From positions 1 to 45,570 of the forward strand of contig JAZKBV010000003.1 of the NCBI GenBank assembly GCA_040388415.1: 45,570 nt of DNA, written 5' to 3'. A model generated the notes under the pieces. That model ran no database searches. It was not told the DNA's origin and saw only the letters and a list, made by a program, of their open reading frames with translations. Within the stretch, counting starts at the first letter, position 1. Each line of letters opens with the position of its first letter. This DNA comes from Patescibacteria group bacterium. Lineage in GTDB: Bacteria; Patescibacteriota; Minisyncoccia; Phycocordibacterales; PALSA-1337. Positions 37,045-45,570 of this stretch are shown here, piece after piece. The position numbers and the translations under genes are program-made.

Positions 37045-37409
37045 TTCTCTTGATCCATAGACCAAGACGGGTGAGTTTAGGTTAGAAATTTCTGCTAGAA
37101 TCGCCTTACAAAGTCTCGCCTAACATAGTTCTATACCGGAGCATCCCAGCATTCTTGTTTACTATCAAACGGCAGAGATGACATGTTTGACATTTTACTT
37201 TTTTCGTGTAAAATTACCCGCCGTGCTTGTTCTTTGTAATACAAACATACTCACTCGTGGTGAGGCTTCGTTTTGATTCGAGGTTTTCTATGTGGCACGT
37301 CCATACAATTTAAAGACCAGTGTATGGTCTTTTAGGTTGGTAACCTACTAATAACAACCCGTCGACTTACGTTATAGTCCAGCGCACTTCTGTTATGTGC
37401 ACCGACCAC

Positions 37410-37868
37410 ATGAAAACGAAAATCATCACCTCAATCAAAAAAACCATCACCACTGCGTTCGTGGCGCTTGCCATCGGGCTCGCCATGTTGGCTGTTCCGC
37501 CGAAAGCATCGGCAGGCGAATTGACCAATGCCGTCTACGGTGGGCCAACTACAACGCTTACTGGGCCGGATTATTACGATTACGCAAAGATGACGAATCC
37601 GCCGTCGGGCAACTTTTGGTTGCCGCTCCTCAATACCAATGCCACGTCGTGCACGTTCACCAACTACAGTGTTCCGGTTGGCCATGCAAATTGGAGAATC
37701 ACCTCAAACAGGTTCGGCAGCACAAATTTTTTCATCGGAACCAACTCGTTGACGTTTCCTCTCACCAATGGCCCGGCGGCAAAATATCAGATTCTTTGCC
37801 AGGATTTGACCCCGCCGAGCCTTCCGAGCGGCACCAAGGTCTTCTTCAAGGGCACCTGGAGTAATTGA
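37410..37868 (+). CDS. secreted hypothetical protein
   Basis: Basic N-region, hydrophobic core, ASA cleavage site; Thr/Asn-rich mature part. Confidence 0.7.
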   Translation: MKTKIITSIKKTITTAFVALAIGLAMLAVPPKASAGELTNAVYGGPTTTLTGPDYYDYAKMTNPPSGNFWLPLLNTNATSCTFTNYSVPVGHANWRITSNRFGSTNFFIGTNSLTFPLTNGPAAKYQILCQDLTPPSLPSGTKVFFKGTWSN

Positions 37869-37922
37869 ATCATTTCGAACAGGAGGTCGCTCTTAGTTTC
37901 TAGGGGCGGCCTCTCAACTGAT

Positions 37923-38294
37923 ATGAAATCGATTCTGTTGCTCGTGCTTGCGATAAATGGTGTAGGTATTGTGAGGTCAGAAGAGATTGATCTTGTCGGC
38001 ACCATCAATTTGTTTGGTGAGCGACAGGCAATCTTTTCCACCACCAATGGGCAATTCACTATCGGATTAGGCTATACCGTAAACCACGTGACTTTGGTGA
38101 AGGTAGATTCGACCGAAGTCGTCATCGACGACCAGGGTGTTATCAAAAAGTTGCGGATCAGTAGTTTGCCCGCAACTCAACCTGTAGTTGCACCCCCTGT
38201 TCCTGCATCTGCCCCAGTTGTCTTTTCTGTGGAAGGCACCCCCACGGAATTCGAATGGCAGATATTGATGGCTGACGGACCGCCGACCGAGTAA
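37923..38294 (+). CDS. secreted hypothetical protein
   Basis: Signal peptide, small beta-rich domain, Pro-rich linker. Confidence 0.6.
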   Translation: MKSILLLVLAINGVGIVRSEEIDLVGTINLFGERQAIFSTTNGQFTIGLGYTVNHVTLVKVDSTEVVIDDQGVIKKLRISSLPATQPVVAPPVPASAPVVFSVEGTPTEFEWQILMADGPPTE

Positions 38295-38319
38295 GTTTGT
38301 TTTGAAAAACTTCAATCGC

Positions 38320-38354
38320 ACTGCCTGACCATCAAGTATGGTCAGGCAGTTTTT
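38320..38354 (+). terminator. intrinsic terminator
   Basis: ACTGCCTGACCAT/ATGGTCAGGCAGT followed by a T-tract. Confidence 0.85.
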
Positions 38355-38444
38355 ATGTATCGTATAGCTTAATTTAACCAGACCGAGACGTCCGCGTTAT
38401 CAACTGTGTTTATCGAACAAGCCATACTATAATAGTGTGTACAT

Positions 38445-38714
38445 ATGTCATATTGTAAAAAAGCGTTTGCACTCATGTGTCTAGTCACGCTCATTACAAT
38501 GGGAACTTCTAGCGCTTTCGCAGCAACACCTAAGCACGTACAACCATTACGCCCTGTGCGTATCTCACACACTCAAGGACTTTCTGGTAAAGATATGTTG
38601 GCCCTATACCGTAATAGTCACAGGAGCACGCGCAATACTATTTCAACCAGCGATCAGCGCACTCGATTGTTTGCACCGATGTTCACACAGAAGTCGCATG
38701 TAGTGCATCACTAA
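38445..38714 (+). CDS. small basic secreted protein
   Basis: Signal peptide ending AFA; stop 3 nt before the next gene. Confidence 0.55.
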   Translation: MSYCKKAFALMCLVTLITMGTSSAFAATPKHVQPLRPVRISHTQGLSGKDMLALYRNSHRSTRNTISTSDQRTRLFAPMFTQKSHVVHH

Positions 38715-38717
38715 ACA

Positions 38718-41700
38718 ATGAATAACCTCATTAAGGTAGTTCGTATTTTTCTTGTCACGGTGATTTTGATCACTGGGATACACAGTGCTCACGCATCATA
38801 CGGTGGTCTTGATTGGATGGTCATCACTGCGCCAAATGAGATAACAATTACCTATGAGCATAGTTTGGCTAGCTATGATGTGAGCATGTATACGAACCTC
38901 GGTTTAGGTCTGGAGGGACGTGCCATCACTGCTATCGTTGCTACAACTTCAAATACCGTCACCATAAGTTTTGATGGACCTCCGGTGCCCCCTAACACAA
39001 CAGGATCAATCGATGTTGGGCCGGTAGATTGGTCAGATGCTCCGGGAGGTTTTGCTGGCGGCACAGAGTATCCGGTCGATGATGGATTGTCGCCAACGCT
39101 TGGCGCGCTGACTCTACAAGATCTCGATACGTCTGGCACGCTCACGTCAGGCGATACAGTGTCATTCCGTTTCAATGAGCCGATGAATCCGAATATCACT
39201 GCGGATAATATCAATACGTTTTTGGGGCTGAGTAATGGACACACTTTCGGCACAGTGGGTCAGGGCTTGGCGATAGCATGGACCAATTCAACCACAACGC
39301 TTGTGGTGACTGTTGCCACTGACGCCACTCTCGCTTCCGGAGATACCATACTACCGACTGAGGATGTTATCGATGCATCATATTGGAATAATCCAGTGAT
39401 CGTATCGGGATCGCTTGCTATACCTGTCACCGCAACAGCTCCAAGGACACTGCATTTCTTCAGTAGTTTGTCGTACGACAGCTGGAATACACTGACCAAC
39501 TGGTGGAATGATGCCGGTCATACTGTTCATGCCTCGTCACTTCCAAATGCATATGACAATGTGGTCATCGATTCAACAGTCACTCCTGATGATTCTGCTG
39601 ATTACTATATACGTTCACTCACCATGAGTGAGATACCGGTTGATGGTCAAAGTGACATCGGACTCAACTTCTTTTATATGAATATACGGACGTCTGACGG
39701 TATTATCGTTAATAGTAATTGGAATTTCGCTGGTTCTATCATTGGTGATACGACGTTTAATGGTTTTGCTGCCGCGGGTCTTCCATTTGGAATAGTTGGT
39801 AATGCAAGTTTTTATTTTGGTCTTTCGAATATTATCGGAAACGTAACATTTAATGCTTCAACGACTGCGAACTATGGAACCATCATGGGAAATACCGCTT
39901 TTCATGGCGAGTATGGCAATGCCGGTCTCATTTATGGAAATACAACATTCAATGACTCCACCTCTAATCCGGGAATCGTTTTCGGTAATGTCATATTCCG
40001 AGATCAGACGTTTAATAGTAACGGTACAATACACGGTGATGTGGATGTATATTCTCCAGCTGAATATCCTCTCTCGGGAAGTGTTGACGGTACGATACGG
40101 TATCACGGATACGCTATGTCCATATCCGTGCATGCGCCTTCGAGGACGATAACTCTCGATGTCGATCCAAGTGATACGATTGAAAACATAAAGACCAAGA
40201 TTCAGGACCAGATCGGACTCGCTCCTCAATATCAGACGCTCAGTTTCGATGGGACGCCACTCGTAGATGGACAGACGTTAGCGCATTATTCTATTGGTGC
40301 CAGTGATACTGTCGACCTCGCCATATCGAGTCCGGAGTTTATCTTTACCGTCAAAACTGATAATGCTGGTGTCAGTGATGATCATTCATTTGAGATTCCT
40401 ACTGCGAACGGAATGACCTACAACTATGATGTTGATTGGGGCGATGGGGCTACGACGACAGGCACGACGACAAACGCTTTTCATACCTATGCAGCAGCCG
40501 GTCTTCATCAGATCAAGGTTACCGGCACATTTCCTGCGATGCTATTTATCTTTGCTGGCGACAAGGATAAGCTCATCGCTATAGATCAGTGGGGAACGAA
40601 TCATTGGTTGGCTATGGGTAGCATGTTCGCAGGATGCTCGCATGTCACCTTTGCCGCCTATGATGCACCTGACCTTTCAGGTGTCACTGACCTTATATAT
40701 ACATTCCGAGCATCAGGGCTGAGAAGCGAAAATCTGAATGGGTGGGATGTTAGCAATATAACTTATTTCCTTGGCACATTCCAAGACACGCCGTTCAATG
40801 GAAATATATCAGGTTGGAATATGAGTGGAGCAGTGAACACCGCCGCGATGTTCTATAACGACACTGCGTTCAATGGGGATGTCAGCGCATGGGATGTGAG
40901 CCATGTCACTTCGATGAGCGCCATGTTCGCGTATGATGCCGCTTTCAACAATGGCGGACAACCACTTTCTTGGGGAAGTAAGACGTCGAATGTTGCTGAT
41001 ATGTCAGCGATGTTTTATCAAGCATCTTCATTTAATCAAGATGTCAGCGGCTGGAATGTGAGCAATGTTACCAACATGAACTCGATGTTCGAAAGCGCGA
41101 CTTCATTCAATAATTCCGATGTTACGAATGCGCACCATCATCCGATTCTCTGGGGAAGTCAGACCTCGAAGGTGACGAATATGCAGGGAATGTTTTCGAA
41201 CGCTCAGCGTTTCAATCAGGATATCGGCTCGTGGGACACGTCTCAGGTGACGACGATGGCATATATGTTGAGTGGCGCGACTCTTTTTGATCAAGATCTC
41301 GGCGGATGGGATTTGAGTAATATCACTACGATGGACAATGCTTTCAGTGGAACAGCGCTTTCGACTCGGCACTACGATACGTCGCTTACGGGCTGGTCAG
41401 GACAACTTCTGCAACATGACGTGGTTGTGGGTGCGCCAAATAGCCATTATTGTAATGCTGGCGAAGCGCGGACAGTCCTTATGAGCGACCCTCTTTTCTG
41501 GACTATCAATGATGCCGGTCATGCCTGTGTCACACCACCGAGTGTTTCGTTTGACGGTTCAACTCCAAATAATAATGCAACACTTGTTGCTACGACTTCT
41601 ATTGATACCGGACTTTCCATGAGCGCGACCGGGAACAGGTATTCATTTGTGAACTCTGATCATTCACTTGAAGGATGGTGGAGATTTGAGCGGAATGGTC

Positions 41701-42701
41701 AGGATGATTCGGGTAAAAACGATGCGAACGTTTGGACAGGAACAGAAAGATATTCGTATGGGGCATTCGGAGATGCGGGATATTTTGATGGAGGGTCATC
41801 CTTTGATGTTGTTCTGCATGACCCGATACAGTCGAGCTTTACTGTCTCGACGTGGGTTTATTTGAATAGTGTCACTGAAGGGGCAGCTATCATTGGTGAC
41901 GAGAATGGTCATCTCCTACAGATCGGTGGAAGTAGTCGCTGGCAGTTCGACAATGCGTATTCTGCGGATGCGGTAGCTTCACCAAGGATCTGGACGCATG
42001 TAGTTGGAGTTTATGATGCTTCAAATGAGATGGAGACGCTGTACGTGAATGGTATGCCCGTAAGCAGTGTTAGCGGAACGAGAGCGGTGGCCGCAGCTTT
42101 GAATATTGGGAAACGTAATGATGGTATTTTCATCTTCGGAAAAATTGATGATGTTATGGTCTGGAGCAGGGCACTCGGAGCGGATGAGGTGGCAGCGCTC
42201 CATGATAGTGAGCAGAGCGGGTATGGTCATTCTTTTAATGATCTTTCATATGGAAACCATTCTTTCAAAGGATATGTCGTCGATGATAATGGAACAGCAC
42301 AATCTACTGAAGAGCGGACTGTTACTGTAAGAGATCCAAATCAACAGGATACACAGCAGCCAGTGCAAACCCCAGCCGTTACAGTCATGTCACACTCAGG
42401 GAGTAGGATATCATATATACCAGTTGCTCCGAGCGTGAAAGTGGCGACTTCTTCCAGACAATGGGTGCGTGATCTTACGTTCGGTATGAGCGGTAGTGAC
42501 GTTCTCGATCTGCAGAAGTTCCTTATCTCTGCAAAAAGTGGTCCTGCTGGGCGTGCGCTTTCGGCGCATGGTGCTACCAATTATTTCGGGGCACTGACCA
42601 GGAACGCTCTTGCTGAATTACAAAAAAAGAATGGCATACGTCCAGCTGTTGGTTATTTCGGACCCAAGACGAGAGGGTATGTTACGTCCAAGTTACAGTA
42701 A
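38718..42701 (+). CDS. 1327-aa mosaic surface protein: signal peptide, Ig-like region, beta-solenoid repeats, ubiquitin-like, PKD, DUF285/BspA repeats, LamG, peptidoglycan-binding
   Basis: AHA signal; GNxxF repeats; TITLDVDPSDTIENIKTKIQD; VDWGDG..HTY; WDVS.VT.M..MF repeats; FTVSTWV..WTHVVGVYD..GKIDDVMVWSRAL; GSDVLDLQKFL..YFGALT..GYFGPKTR. Confidence 0.9.
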   Translation: MNNLIKVVRIFLVTVILITGIHSAHASYGGLDWMVITAPNEITITYEHSLASYDVSMYTNLGLGLEGRAITAIVATTSNTVTISFDGPPVPPNTTGSIDVGPVDWSDAPGGFAGGTEYPVDDGLSPTLGALTLQDLDTSGTLTSGDTVSFRFNEPMNPNITADNINTFLGLSNGHTFGTVGQGLAIAWTNSTTTLVVTVATDATLASGDTILPTEDVIDASYWNNPVIVSGSLAIPVTATAPRTLHFFSSLSYDSWNTLTNWWNDAGHTVHASSLPNAYDNVVIDSTVTPDDSADYYIRSLTMSEIPVDGQSDIGLNFFYMNIRTSDGIIVNSNWNFAGSIIGDTTFNGFAAAGLPFGIVGNASFYFGLSNIIGNVTFNASTTANYGTIMGNTAFHGEYGNAGLIYGNTTFNDSTSNPGIVFGNVIFRDQTFNSNGTIHGDVDVYSPAEYPLSGSVDGTIRYHGYAMSISVHAPSRTITLDVDPSDTIENIKTKIQDQIGLAPQYQTLSFDGTPLVDGQTLAHYSIGASDTVDLAISSPEFIFTVKTDNAGVSDDHSFEIPTANGMTYNYDVDWGDGATTTGTTTNAFHTYAAAGLHQIKVTGTFPAMLFIFAGDKDKLIAIDQWGTNHWLAMGSMFAGCSHVTFAAYDAPDLSGVTDLIYTFRASGLRSENLNGWDVSNITYFLGTFQDTPFNGNISGWNMSGAVNTAAMFYNDTAFNGDVSAWDVSHVTSMSAMFAYDAAFNNGGQPLSWGSKTSNVADMSAMFYQASSFNQDVSGWNVSNVTNMNSMFESATSFNNSDVTNAHHHPILWGSQTSKVTNMQGMFSNAQRFNQDIGSWDTSQVTTMAYMLSGATLFDQDLGGWDLSNITTMDNAFSGTALSTRHYDTSLTGWSGQLLQHDVVVGAPNSHYCNAGEARTVLMSDPLFWTINDAGHACVTPPSVSFDGSTPNNNATLVATTSIDTGLSMSATGNRYSFVNSDHSLEGWWRFERNGQDDSGKNDANVWTGTERYSYGAFGDAGYFDGGSSFDVVLHDPIQSSFTVSTWVYLNSVTEGAAIIGDENGHLLQIGGSSRWQFDNAYSADAVASPRIWTHVVGVYDASNEMETLYVNGMPVSSVSGTRAVAAALNIGKRNDGIFIFGKIDDVMVWSRALGADEVAALHDSEQSGYGHSFNDLSYGNHSFKGYVVDDNGTAQSTEERTVTVRDPNQQDTQQPVQTPAVTVMSHSGSRISYIPVAPSVKVATSSRQWVRDLTFGMSGSDVLDLQKFLISAKSGPAGRALSAHGATNYFGALTRNALAELQKKNGIRPAVGYFGPKTRGYVTSKLQ

Positions 42702-42790: not shown

Positions 42791-44221
42791 ATGGAAAATA
42801 CAGCAATACAAAATAAAAAACGCTGGTGGGCGCTCTCTATATTGTGTCTCGGCGTGCTCATGATCGTGCTCGATACGACTATCGTCAATGTAGCCTTGCC
42901 ATCTATCAGGACAAGCCTCGGTTTTGGCGAAGCATCGCTTGCGTGGGTAGTGAATGCGTACTTGCTGACATTCGGCGGGTTTCTCCTGCTCGGTGGAAGG
43001 CTCGGTGATCTCTATGGACATCGTCGTGTCTTTTTGTCGGGCCTTGTCATCTTCACACTGGCATCACTTGCTTGTGGATTTGCGGGAAGTCAGTGGTTCC
43101 TCATCGTCGCTCGAGCAATACAAGGGATCGGCGGGGCAGTGGTGAATGCGGTAGCACTCTCGCTTATGATGAATCTTTTTACAGAACCAGGTGATCGTGC
43201 AAAAGCCATGGGCGTTTTTGGTTTCGTGGCAGCGGGCGGTGGATCGATCGGAGTACTGCTCGGCGGGCTTTTGACGACGATCAATTGGCACTGGATTTTC
43301 TTGGTGAATATTCCAATCGGTATCGTAGTGTTCATCTTTTCTTTCTGGCTACTTCCTGCTACACGCCTAGAAGATGCACAGAAGCATCTCGACGTACCAG
43401 GAGCCGTTACTCTCATCGCGTCGCTGGTGCTTGCCAACTACGCTATCGTCAACGGCAATATCGTCGGATGGATGACATTTCAAACTCTCGGACTTCTCGC
43501 TCTTGCAGTGATTTTACTTGCTTTGTTCATCTGGATCGAATCTCGAGCTCGAGTGCCACTGATGCCGTTACGTCTCTTCCGCTTGCGCAATGTCGTGACC
43601 GCAAATGCTGCTGGCGTCCTCTGGGCTGCAGCTATGTTCTCATGGTTTTTTATCTCCGCGCTCTATATGCAATTCGTCCTTGGTTATTCACCGCTTCAAG
43701 TGGGCCTCGCTTTTCTACCAGCCAATCTCATCATGGCAGCTTTTTCGGTCGGTCTCTCAGCGAAGATTATCATGCGCTACGGGATCAAGAGACCGCTCTG
43801 GACGGGTCTCACATCTGCTTCGCTCGGTTTGGTATTGCTGGCATTCGCGCCTATTGGCGGACACTTTGTCGCGAATATTCTGCCGAGCATGATACTGCTC
43901 GGCATCGGGGCGGGCATCGCTTTTAATCCGATCCTTCTCGTTGCCATGAGCGATCTTCCTCAGGCAGAATCTGGTCTCGCGTCAGGGCTCGTCAACACAT
44001 CATTCATGATGGGTGGCGCGCTTGGACTCGCGATTCTCGCTAGTCTCGCCCTTGCTCGAACAGAGAGTCTTGTCCAGTCAGGGACGACCCATCTTGTCGC
44101 TCTCAATGCGGGTTATCATGCCGCTTTTCTCGTCGGCGCCAGCTTCGCAGCGCTTGCTGCTATTCTTGGCGTCGTGTTTCTGAAGGTGCCAGCGAGGGGA
44201 GTGGAGAGTTCCGCAGTTTAG
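42791..44221 (+). CDS. DHA2-family (EmrB/QacA) MFS efflux transporter
   Basis: LDTTIVNVALPSI, GGRLGDLYGHRR, WHWIFLVNIPIG; about 14 TM helices. Confidence 0.93.
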   Translation: MENTAIQNKKRWWALSILCLGVLMIVLDTTIVNVALPSIRTSLGFGEASLAWVVNAYLLTFGGFLLLGGRLGDLYGHRRVFLSGLVIFTLASLACGFAGSQWFLIVARAIQGIGGAVVNAVALSLMMNLFTEPGDRAKAMGVFGFVAAGGGSIGVLLGGLLTTINWHWIFLVNIPIGIVVFIFSFWLLPATRLEDAQKHLDVPGAVTLIASLVLANYAIVNGNIVGWMTFQTLGLLALAVILLALFIWIESRARVPLMPLRLFRLRNVVTANAAGVLWAAAMFSWFFISALYMQFVLGYSPLQVGLAFLPANLIMAAFSVGLSAKIIMRYGIKRPLWTGLTSASLGLVLLAFAPIGGHFVANILPSMILLGIGAGIAFNPILLVAMSDLPQAESGLASGLVNTSFMMGGALGLAILASLALARTESLVQSGTTHLVALNAGYHAAFLVGASFAALAAILGVVFLKVPARGVESSAV

Positions 44222-44266: not shown

Positions 44267-45570
44267 ATGGCCATATTCTCAATACTACGCAAACATATCG
44301 TTATATCAACTGCAGTAGCTCTGGTGGCTATTGTTATCGCTGTCATTGCTGGAAGATCGCTCAAACAGCCAGTCTCAGCGATTAGCACCTCAACAGCAAA
44401 ACTGGTGACGACCGTGAACGCATCTACATTCCGTCAGGGCAACGTAGCCGTTTCGGCAAATGGCACTGTCGAAGCTCATTCACAGGCCGATCTGAAGAGT
44501 CAGACTTCAGCGCCCGTTTCGGTCATAGATGTCTCTATCGGTCAAAATGTTTACTCTGGTCAAGTACTTATAGAGCTTTCAAATAGCGATATTCGCGCAC
44601 AGTTGGCTCAAGCAGAAGCATCGCTTGCACTCGCACAAGGACAATATGACACTGGGGCAGTCTCACTTGATTCTGCAAGGCAGGCAGCGATCGACAAGAT
44701 CAAAGATGCATATATAAAGACCTATGACGCTATCGTGACGCAGGCCGATCCGATTTTGTACAACAACAACGGCAATGGTGGACAATTGAACTCGCTTTCG
44801 TCTGATACTGCGCTCAACAATGAGATTACAAGCATCGATCTTGAGCTCCGTAGCGCATTTTTGGACTGGAAAGCGCTCAACGATAGCCTCACTGTCAGTA
44901 CAAGCACTGACATCATAAAAGCAGCTGCTGCCACCGCGCAAAAAAATATGACGATCGCCGGTAGTCTGCTCAATGACATGTCGAAGCTATTGAATAGCTT
45001 ATCTAACTCCGCTACGCCCACATTTTTGGCTTCTCTAGATACATGGAAAGGAGTGGTCACTGCAGCGCATAACTCTGTCTCAGGTGCTCAACAGTCTTTG
45101 ACGGCTGCAAGCCAAGCCCTCAACACAGGAAGCTCGAGTCAAGGATCGACTGCTCGTGCTCAAATCGCTGCTGCACAAGCTGGCGTCGACAATCTGCGCG
45201 CTCAGCTAGCCAAGACCATCATCCGTTCTCCTGTTGCTGGAAAGATCTCAGCACTACCATTGCGCGAAGGGGAACTGGCTTCACCGGGCACTTTGCTCGC
45301 CACAGTCATCGGCAATGAAGATGGTCTTAGGATCAAGGCATATGTCAGCGGCGAAGATCTCTCTCGCATCCAAGTCGGATCAACTGTCATCGTTCAGGAT
45401 ACAGCGTCGAAAGGCATTGTCTCAAATGTTGCTCCTGGCGTAGATTCAACGACCAAGAAAGCAGAAGTTGATATTGATGTGCTTGATTCCGGCACATCTG
45501 GAGCATCAGGGCTCGTTATCGGCAGGAATGTGAGTGTTCTCATATCTCCAGCGCATGTCGCAACAACCGT
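44267..45570 (+). CDS. HlyD/membrane-fusion (periplasmic adaptor) protein, 3'-partial; absent from the ORF track
   Basis: Hand translation: MAIFSILRKH, TM, ANGTVEAHSQADLKSQ..VSIGQNVYSGQVL, long helical hairpin, KTIIRSPVAGKI..EGE; no stop seen before the window end. Confidence 0.88.
   Translation, partial: MAIFSILRKHIVISTAVALVAIVIAVIAGRSLKQPVSAISTSTAKLVTTVNASTFRQGNVAVSANGTVEAHSQADLKSQTSAPVSVIDVSIGQNVYSGQVLIELSNSDIRAQLAQAEASLALAQGQYDTGAVSLDSARQAAIDKIKDAYIKTYDAIVTQADPILYNNNGNGGQLNSLSSDTALNNEITSIDLELRSAFLDWKALNDSLTVSTSTDIIKAAAATAQKNMTIAGSLLNDMSKLLNSLSNSATPTFLASLDTWKGVVTAAHNSVSGAQQSLTAASQALNTGSSSQGSTARAQIAAAQAGVDNLRAQLAKTIIRSPVAGKISALPLREGELASPGTLLATVIGNEDGLRIKAYVSGEDLSRIQVGSTVIVQDTASKGIVSNVAPGVDSTTKKAEVDIDVLDSGTSGASGLVIGRNVSVLISPAHVATT

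Follow-up and report, generated by a model that had tools for sequence, protein, structure and literature searches.

A diverged ubiquitin domain embedded in a predicted wall-anchored adhesin of a Patescibacteria group bacterium

A 45,570-nucleotide stretch of DNA from a Patescibacteria group bacterium (assembly GCA_040388415.1, contig JAZKBV010000003.1, positions 1 to 45,570 of the forward strand; hereafter the window) encodes a protein of 1327 residues that carries a ubiquitin-family domain in its interior, at residues 467-536. The contig is the third of six in a genome of 782,297 bases (0.78 Mb) with an estimated completeness of 99%. The domain is interpreted here as a diverged ubiquitin that forms one bead in a fused, wall-anchored adhesin, that would have come from a pool of bacterial secreted proteins, and that may act as a spacer; taken as a whole, this reading is assigned a probability of roughly 70%. 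The component that the domain is a real member of the ubiquitin family, lying in a real fused gene under selection, is held with high confidence.

Identity of the domain

The translation of positions 40116-40325 yields exactly the 70 residues that the original prediction, made from the letters of the window, had singled out as ubiquitin-like. Taken alone, the segment matches the Pfam ubiquitin profile PF00240 with 65.0 bits (E 5.4e-18), well above the curated cut-off of 25.4 bits. The same profile matches residues 473-537 of the whole protein with 59.5 bits (E 2.8e-16) and gives 65.5 bits in a scan of the whole genome, such that the proposed check by hidden Markov model returned a significant match. 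Rad60-SLD is a weaker second Pfam match of the segment. Families of the ThiS/MoaD type are matched at E<=1 neither by the domain nor by the whole protein.

A phmmer search of the PDB retrieves single ubiquitins at E values of about 1e-15 to 1e-16 (about 60 bits), with residues 8-69 of the segment aligned to residues 9-70 of ubiquitin. In the printed alignment, 33 of 60 columns are identical; the identity to near-canonical ubiquitin is 54% by MAFFT, and Foldseek reports 44-51%; the 35 identities in 70 residues counted by hand in the original prediction were thus about right. An AlphaFold model of the domain, computed from an alignment that adds to the segment 49 of the 80 loci described below, has a mean predicted local distance difference test score (pLDDT) of 88.6, a core above 92, and the element order β-β-α-β...β. 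Ubiquitin and its variants account for all of the top 50 Foldseek matches in the PDB, with target template modelling (TM) scores of 0.88-0.95 for single-domain chains and root-mean-square deviations of 0.6-1.5 Å, so that the predicted structure superposes on ubiquitin. Pfam, PDB, and Foldseek agree that the domain is far closer to ubiquitin than to the prokaryotic beta-grasp proteins, as had been claimed.

The alignments also bear out the residue losses listed earlier. Ubiquitin position 8 is a proline or a gap, and a one-residue deletion falls in the 8-10 loop. The recognition patch is substituted (I44 to S, H68 to D, and V70 to A), as are the lysines K6 (to H), K11 (to R), K33 (to Q), K48 (to T), and K63 (to A); K27 and K29 are retained. 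The LRLRGG tail is missing: the domain ends in ..VDLAI, and the chain goes on with SSPEF.. in the same open reading frame (ORF). The 70 residues contain no cysteine.

Architecture of the protein

The gene and its modules are arranged as follows.

38718..42701, + strand: whole ORF, 1327 residues in one uninterrupted frame; a modular, secreted, peptidoglycan-anchored surface protein
38718..38795, + strand: probable signal peptide, residues 1-26 (..GIHSAHA/SYGG), with a basic N-terminus, a hydrophobic core, and an AxA site
38718..40112, + strand: N-module, residues 1-465, beta-rich and then with solenoid-like repeats; common to another surface-protein family
40116..40325, + strand: ubiquitin-family domain, residues 467-536 (PF00240, ubiquitin matches in the PDB, predicted fold)
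40326..40592, + strand: short SSPE linker and PKD-like beta-sandwich, residues 537-625, borders approximate (sub-threshold PKD matches)
40593..41522, + strand: DUF285 / BspA-type repeats, borders approximate (PF03382, 233 bits, four stretches)
41829..42194, + strand: Laminin_G_3 (LamG), a concanavalin-like lectin module, residues 1038-1159 (PF13385, 73.1 bits)
42489..42674, + strand: PG_binding_1 wall anchor, residues 1258-1319 (PF01471, 23.3 bits against a cut-off of 23, thus borderline)

Residues 1-26 are probably a signal peptide, the cleavage site having been read from the sequence by eye; the same leader is found by BLASTP in P0262, a homologue discussed below. The flanks of the domain are defined to different degrees. 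The DUF285 repeats, as predicted, are clear at 233 bits. The PKD-like region, which is beta-rich and of low confidence in the AlphaFold model, matches PKD_4 and PKD at residues 563-603 below threshold (E 0.02-0.08). The beta-solenoid proposed for the N-module is visible only as a pattern of periodic short strands in the model (pLDDT mostly 70-94); no solenoid fold match was obtained for it, and the Foldseek matches listed for the 401-residue model are all ubiquitin. The wall-anchored architecture, in a genome of this size, agrees with the earlier description of a secreted surface protein.

Many large ORFs of the genus, spread over 46 of 60 sampled genomes, end in the PG_binding module at 35-50% identity, and no full-length orthologue of the adhesin is present in these 60. 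Recurrence of this module without a full-length orthologue fits a wall-anchored protein family built by module shuffling.

Mosaic structure and gene fusion

A search with residues 230-700 finds about 200 homologues, 120 of which were listed. NCBI gives many of the homologues the name "BspA family leucine-rich repeat surface protein", and among the 120 listed PF00240 is found only in the protein itself and in two others, P0249 and P0292.

Three relatives define the borders of the domain. P0262, a protein of 1206 residues, aligns over its residues 1-462 with the N-module (residues 1-465) at 62% identity (292/468, BLASTP). The match starts at residue 1 and breaks off at ..YHGY, where P0262 passes into unrelated repeats; P0280, P0295, P0296, and P0304 are 52-56% identical over the same module. 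P0249, an NCBI protein of 887 residues from a 64.5-kb contig, aligns over its residues 1-885 with residues 467-1324 of the adhesin at 69% identity (609/886). Its called start is the ubiquitin methionine (MQISIQAPSR..), Pfam identifies ubiquitin (54 bits), DUF285, and LamG in it, and it shares with the domain the derived substitutions P at position 8, I34, D46, D68, and A70. Lastly, ubiquitin is missing from P0299 (832 residues, with the label Candidatus Buchananbacteria) and from P0298, both of which have the PKD-like, DUF285, LamG, and PG-binding modules. Residues 535-1327 of the adhesin align with residues 26-830 of P0299 at 53% identity (433/823), and this alignment begins at the end of the P0299 signal peptide. 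The break in P0262 and the start in P0299 show that the ubiquitin is bounded on both sides by homology breakpoints and stands where the ubiquitin-less relative has its leader.

Thus, it is hypothesized that the first 465 codons of a P0262-type surface gene were joined to a complete ubiquitin-first gene of the P0249 type, and that Met467 would be the former first residue of the latter. We infer the direction and the order of this fusion. The original prediction had remarked that the domain begins exactly at the ubiquitin methionine. The position is correct, and the borders with P0249, P0262, and P0299 suggest a better explanation for it than capture of a ubiquitin gene, as a fusion to a ubiquitin-first gene accounts for the exact start.

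P0249 is called from exactly the equivalent of Met467, and the homology breakpoint lies one residue before it, both of which could also be explained if an internal start at Met467 yielded a P0249-like, ubiquitin-first second product, the upstream and ubiquitin parts being functionally separate. This is rather unlikely. Neither a stop nor a spacer separates the two parts, a clear Shine-Dalgarno sequence upstream of 40116 was not found when the sequence was read by eye, and a leaderless product would have no way to bring its DUF285, LamG, and PG-binding modules to the cell exterior. In addition, the synonymous-dominated variation described in the next section continues across the junction.

The other homologue with ubiquitin, P0292 from Parapedobacter deserti (2066 residues, BspA/type IX secretion system (T9SS), CHU_C tail), carries an internal ubiquitin at residues 1008-1076. 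It shares the motifs IQDQIG, FDG, and LDL with the adhesin domain at 44% identity overall, and it is the only other case of an internal ubiquitin that was encountered.

Assembly and selection

The junctions were examined in Logan assembled contigs, not in raw reads, of two samples from one study: X1, which is possibly the source sample, and X2. In X1, a 1536-nucleotide contig covers 39669-41000 with zero differences. In X2, a 1256-nucleotide contig covers 39501-40618 with 28 differences and no gaps, and it crosses both junctions of the domain; the number of differences indicates a different strain that has the same junctions. Of the 26 differences that were listed, 21 are synonymous and five are conservative replacements. 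Within the ubiquitin segment, five of seven strain differences are synonymous, and the replacements are A528S and V532I. Variation dominated by synonymous changes indicates a coding sequence under purifying selection.

Sharp mosaic borders such as those described above would also be produced by an assembly chimera joining unrelated sequences. This possibility is exceedingly improbable, because both borders are bridged gaplessly by contigs from two samples, the strain in the second sample differs at 28 positions, and P0249 independently joins ubiquitin to the same downstream modules. The proposed check of coverage across both junctions therefore gave no indication of a chimera.

A minor X1 contig (depth 5.1, compared with 73.7) has 14 differences over 39501-39698 and carries the same variants as the X2 strain, which indicates that both strains co-occur in the possible source sample. 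An estuary run, X3, contains two 151-nucleotide pieces at depth 2 that cover parts of the N-module only, one of which ends at 40114. A further run, X4, lacks nearly all of the sampled words.

Distribution among close relatives

Within its own genome, PF00240 is matched at the adhesin locus only. The profile has no match in 24 other members of the genus or in 16 genomes from elsewhere in the order, and none over the cut-off in 400 genomes drawn from the phylum, where one match reaches 19 bits. A protein search with residues 467-661 finds nothing in 92 other genomes of the genus. A search of 400 other genomes of the order with residues 467-551 gives two matches. The first, G757 (L177:1426-2745), is a protein of 439 residues with a signal peptide, ubiquitin (..YADA/MQIYV..), LamG, and PG_binding_1. 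The second, G692 (L178:1396-3234), has at least 613 residues, is open at the locus end, and has a signal peptide, ubiquitin, and a right-handed beta-helix. Ubiquitin as the first module of wall-anchored proteins thus exists in the order, but rarely.

A word-indexed search of long proteins with residues 460-545 returned the protein itself only, a result limited by the sensitivity of the method, as P0249 and P0292 were found by a later search. An existing description of the fusion as widespread would have counted against the original prediction; the exact fusion is instead rare (0/92 in the genus, 2/400 in the order, and 0/400 over the cut-off in the phylum).

Secreted ubiquitin proteins in other prokaryotes

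A wider group of proteins places ubiquitin directly after a signal peptide. The hits of another word-indexed search include metagenome proteins in which a signal peptide and a near-canonical ubiquitin precede dockerin, autotransporter, OmpA, or beta-helix modules. The pattern TITLD[VM][EVD][PSE][SNG][DE], taken from an alignment of these proteins, was run against prokaryotic genomes, each species being represented by a single one. Of its 245 matches, 224 were confirmed by tblastn and 80 were kept (L015-L094). The figure of 224 is a lower bound, as the pattern demands D at ubiquitin position 16, where P0249, G757, and G692 have E. These proteins are referred to here as signal peptide-ubiquitin-X (SP-Ub-X) proteins, an operational group defined in this analysis.

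The loci span many phyla. Complete or near-complete genomes with a locus include that of Verrucomicrobia bacterium IMCC26134, and the complete ones include Verrucomicrobia and Proteobacteria. Loci are also found in isolates of Acidovorax, Rhodobacter, Neptunomonas, Ochrovirga, and Belliella, as well as in Prochlorococcus single-cell genomes, rumen Firmicutes, Lindowbacteria, and archaeal metagenome-assembled genomes (MAGs). By a crude start rule and a crude hydrophobicity test, ubiquitin starts 6-60 residues past the first ATG in 59 of the 80 loci, and a hydrophobic run precedes it in 58 of these 59; it starts within five residues in 12 loci and later in nine. Pfam was run on 79 of the 80 ORFs (L058 was left out), with the following matches.

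Ubiquitin: 79/79 ORFs
Autotransporter barrel: 16/79 ORFs
TIG: 4/79 ORFs
Flg_new: 4/79 ORFs
IPTL-CTERM: 4/79 ORFs
T9SS tail: 3/79 ORFs
Archaeal pilin N: 2/79 ORFs
SLH: 1/79 ORFs
LamG: 1/79 ORFs

Ubiquitin in secreted bacterial proteins is thus widespread in sequence databases. The fused bacterial anchors and the matches in complete genomes argue against contamination for many loci.

The metagenomes were also scanned with the generic patterns SD[TS]IEN[IV]K and [TA]KIQD[QK]IG, taken from the alignment of the domain with P0249. At least 585 matches were found and 529 were confirmed; among the 80 kept of the 529, there is no further member of the P0249 subfamily, the best being 59% identical. An exhaustive phmmer search gives 16235 hits at E<=1e-3, and the 150 listed are all multi-repeat, polyubiquitin-like proteins.

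Several of the ubiquitin proteins encountered have distinctive features of their own. Two proteins from Methanobacteriota MAGs (L037:5626-6399 and L067:2261-2929) combine an archaeal type IV pilin N-terminal domain with a near-canonical ubiquitin. Three Prochlorococcus single-cell or uncultured genomes (L032, L051, and L081) encode signal peptide-ubiquitin proteins of about 425-431 residues that share a C-terminal part starting with ..SSTTL.TEWVQPYA. The metagenome proteins P0005, P0007-P0010, P0083, P0087, and P0182 have 1000-2500 residues and many diverged ubiquitin-like repeats, with 16 ubiquitin-like matched stretches in P0083, 17 in P0010, 21 in P0087, and 22 in P0182. P0005, P0007, P0008, P0009, and P0010 lie on contigs of 240-600 kb, and P0007, P0008, and P0010 lie together on one contig of 241,825 bp.

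Origin of the domain

The ultimate ancestor of the domain would be a eukaryote-type ubiquitin, a conclusion drawn because nothing prokaryotic is comparably similar. The original prediction went further and proposed that a eukaryotic, viral, or archaeal ubiquitin gene was captured. As a direct and fairly recent event in this organism, such a capture of a eukaryotic, giant-virus, or archaeal gene agrees with an identity of about 50-55% to canonical ubiquitin, with the best Pfam and PDB matches being ubiquitin, and with the absence of the domain from 92 other genomes of the genus. Nonetheless, it is improbable, on grounds of both composition and relatives.

Composition was compared across the gene in windows of 70 codons, and the ubiquitin segment lies within about one standard deviation (sd). 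Its GC content is 0.486, compared with a gene-window mean of 0.437 (sd 0.071), its GC content at third codon positions (GC3) is 0.50, and its codon-preference score is -1.185, compared with -1.097 (sd 0.077). GC, GC3, and codon use are thus native and bear no mark of recent import. As for relatives, P0249, from another genome, is 69% identical and has the same derived residues; SP-Ub-X proteins exist in the same order, where G692 shares I34 with the domain and P0249; and the bacterial pool of SP-Ub-X genes is large.

The domain shares 69% identity with P0249 and 44-60% with all other sequences compared, whether bacterial or eukaryote-like. A ubiquitin tree of 95 rows and 72 columns, from which P0292 was left out, resolves only the pair of the domain and P0249 clearly; six of 92 inner branches are starred, and there are long-branch warnings. 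A constraint that joins the domain, P0249, G757, and G692 (own order plus sister) in one clade is not rejected (approximately unbiased test, p-AU 0.60), and the log-likelihood of the constrained tree is 7.96 above that of the free quick tree. I34 occurs in three of the 95 rows, namely the domain, P0249, and G692, and P0292 also has I34. The phylogeny, a check that had been proposed, is clear only on the pairing with P0249, and no donor is drawn from it.

We infer that the proximate source was probably the bacterial pool rather than a eukaryote, a view favored with some reserve. The ubiquitin-first gene would have been drawn from a patchily distributed prokaryotic pool of secreted proteins in which ubiquitin follows the signal peptide and an anchor stands at the C-terminus.

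Function

The domain is not conjugatable, as had been foreseen: it is embedded in the chain and lacks the diglycine and the I44 patch, and no ThiF-type E1 was matched in the 99%-complete genome, in a search whose control was positive in 12 of 14 genomes. A search for E2 (UQ_con) gave no match, and its control profile was likewise silent everywhere. The one match to Prok-JAB, at 19.6 bits, falls short of the cut-off of 25. To the extent that sequence is a guide, the domain can be neither conjugated nor recognized by classical ubiquitin receptors, and in this lineage it would have shed the features that serve them.

From signal peptide to anchor, the proposed order of modules is the beta-rich/solenoid-like N-module, ubiquitin, the PKD-like sandwich, the DUF285/BspA repeats, the LamG lectin, and the PG-binding module. 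Ubiquitin is mechanically robust when pulled end to end. The domain may be pictured as a compact and stable unit, either a spacer or an interaction module, by which the DUF285 and LamG binding parts are held in position. On the basis of the architecture, such a role in an adhesin is the favored one, with moderate confidence.

The original prediction had also offered mimicry, in which the module would engage ubiquitin-binding proteins of a eukaryotic host or grazer. In many of the other SP-Ub-X proteins of bacteria, the ubiquitin at the distal end has stayed near-canonical, which fits selection on the ubiquitin surface. Here, by contrast, the domain is internal rather than at the tip, the patch is replaced both in it and in P0249 (P or a gap at 8, S/T at 44, D at 68, and A at 70), and a eukaryotic host is not indicated by any evidence in this analysis. 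BfUbb, the ubiquitin homologue of Bacteroides fragilis, cross-reacts with anti-ubiquitin antibodies (PMC3352274). For the adhesin domain, mimicry is nevertheless unlikely.

Even less probable is a BfUbb-like antibacterial toxin module acting on a periplasmic peptidyl-prolyl isomerase (PPIase) of a competitor or host bacterium. Among bacterial homologues of ubiquitin, functional studies exist only for BfUbb and for BoUbb of Bacteroides ovatus, both of which are secreted toxins (PMC11467351). They are also small and stand-alone, and their activity needs a C-terminal disulfide (PMC11467351), whereas the adhesin domain has no cysteine and is embedded in a 1327-residue wall-anchored protein to which a SusCD-type importer context does not apply.

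Neighbouring genes

The adhesin is immediately preceded, in the same orientation, by three small ORFs of 157, 123, and 89 residues (37395-38714). They have signal-peptide-like N-termini, and a Pfam search of them found no family. Downstream, the adhesin is followed by a major facilitator superfamily (MFS) transporter (42791-44221) and then by an HlyD-type protein with an open end (44267-45568).

Strength of the reading and significance

Several points weigh against the reading of the domain as a bacterial-pool ubiquitin fused into an adhesin. With regard to origin, the domain is about equally distant (44-60%) from all ubiquitins compared except P0249, the ubiquitin tree is poorly supported, and the constraint test shares its long-branch risk. 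A scan made with a single pattern is uninformative on whether the domain is closer to bacterial or to eukaryotic ubiquitins, and some of the 224 loci, those on short MAG contigs, could be contaminants. With regard to the fusion, P0249 as called has no signal peptide even though its other domains are extracellular, and it could have arisen by the splitting of a copy of this fusion. The ancestral signal peptide-ubiquitin-PKD-DUF285 gene is hypothetical. The junctions are spanned by contigs, not by raw reads, from one study, and the proposed function is derived from architecture only.

If the reading holds, ubiquitin has been domesticated as a building block of a large surface adhesin in an ultra-small bacterium. 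The locus would then be a clean natural case of modular surface-protein assembly, with exact breakpoints and an old start codon kept as an internal methionine. The diverged adhesin domain and the near-canonical members make a pair for testing which ubiquitin features matter extracellularly. The single instance is a moderate curiosity, and the wider SP-Ub-X family is the more interesting lead.

A broader proposal, put forward tentatively and with less than even confidence, is that the domain is a diverged offshoot of an apparently undescribed, cross-phylum class of surface proteins. These would display eukaryote-type ubiquitin at the distal end, be anchored C-terminally, and, through horizontal transfer and the shuffling of modules, have become dispersed across bacteria and archaea. 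The anchors in this class include the autotransporter barrel, T9SS tail, PG-binding, SLH, dockerin, IPTL-CTERM, and archaeal pilin modules. If near-canonical members are kept so by selection for contact with eukaryotic ubiquitin-binding machinery, surface display of ubiquitin would be a widespread microbial strategy, and the Patescibacteria versions would show a release of the near-canonical constraint.

Comparison with known systems

The literature open to search, with subscription journals and supplements outside it, yielded no description of ubiquitin fused into bacterial surface proteins and none of ubiquitin as a surface-protein module in Patescibacteria; database annotations, in the form of Pfam domain lists, already carry the ubiquitin match. 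BfUbb is 63% identical to human ubiquitin (PMC3352274), relies on a signal peptide for export, and no longer has the C-terminal glycine through which ubiquitin is conjugated (PMC3463472); its presence is attributed to inter-kingdom transfer. B. fragilis was called unique in having a bacterial ubiquitin homologue in 2012 (PMC3463472) and in 2018 (PMC6194340), and BoUbb was added in 2024 (PMC11467351). For an alphaproteobacterial symbiont of sponges, signal peptides on "ubiquitin-like proteins" are mentioned in a passing remark (PMC10947273).

The adhesin domain resembles BfUbb and BoUbb in being a eukaryote-type ubiquitin that is found in a bacterium, is secreted, and has no conjugatable C-terminus, at about 50-55% identity to ubiquitin. 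It differs in that BfUbb is a small, stand-alone, PPIase-targeting toxin with a C-terminal disulfide (PMC11467351), while the domain is internal to a wall-anchored adhesin of 1327 residues in a Patescibacteria genome, has no cysteine, and lacks the I44 patch.

The prokaryotic beta-grasp modifiers ThiS and MoaD share the beta-grasp fold with the domain. In contrast to them, it matches none of their families at E<=1, has no ThiF-type E1 match in its genome, is not free-standing, and does not end in a glycine. We also take it to be set apart from the operon-encoded ubiquitin-like proteins of the Bil and CBASS types, being embedded and without a C-terminal glycine; the beta-grasp fold is presumably common to all.

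Likeness to the BspA / DUF285 proteins lies in the tandem DUF285 repeats, which occur there with PKD, LamG, T9SS, or PG-binding partners. The closest parallel is the SP-Ub-X group, whose members, G757 and G692 of the same order among them, are secreted PF00240 proteins with a C-terminal surface anchor, which the adhesin has as PG_binding_1. G757 uses LamG and PG_binding modules as the adhesin does, and P0249 is a direct relative. The difference is one of position and divergence: in 59 of the 80 SP-Ub-X loci, a near-canonical ubiquitin comes right after the leader, whereas that of the adhesin begins at residue 467 and is much more diverged. With BfUbb already known, what is new here is a rare internal and diverged ubiquitin module in the adhesin of an ultra-small bacterium, formed by fusion.

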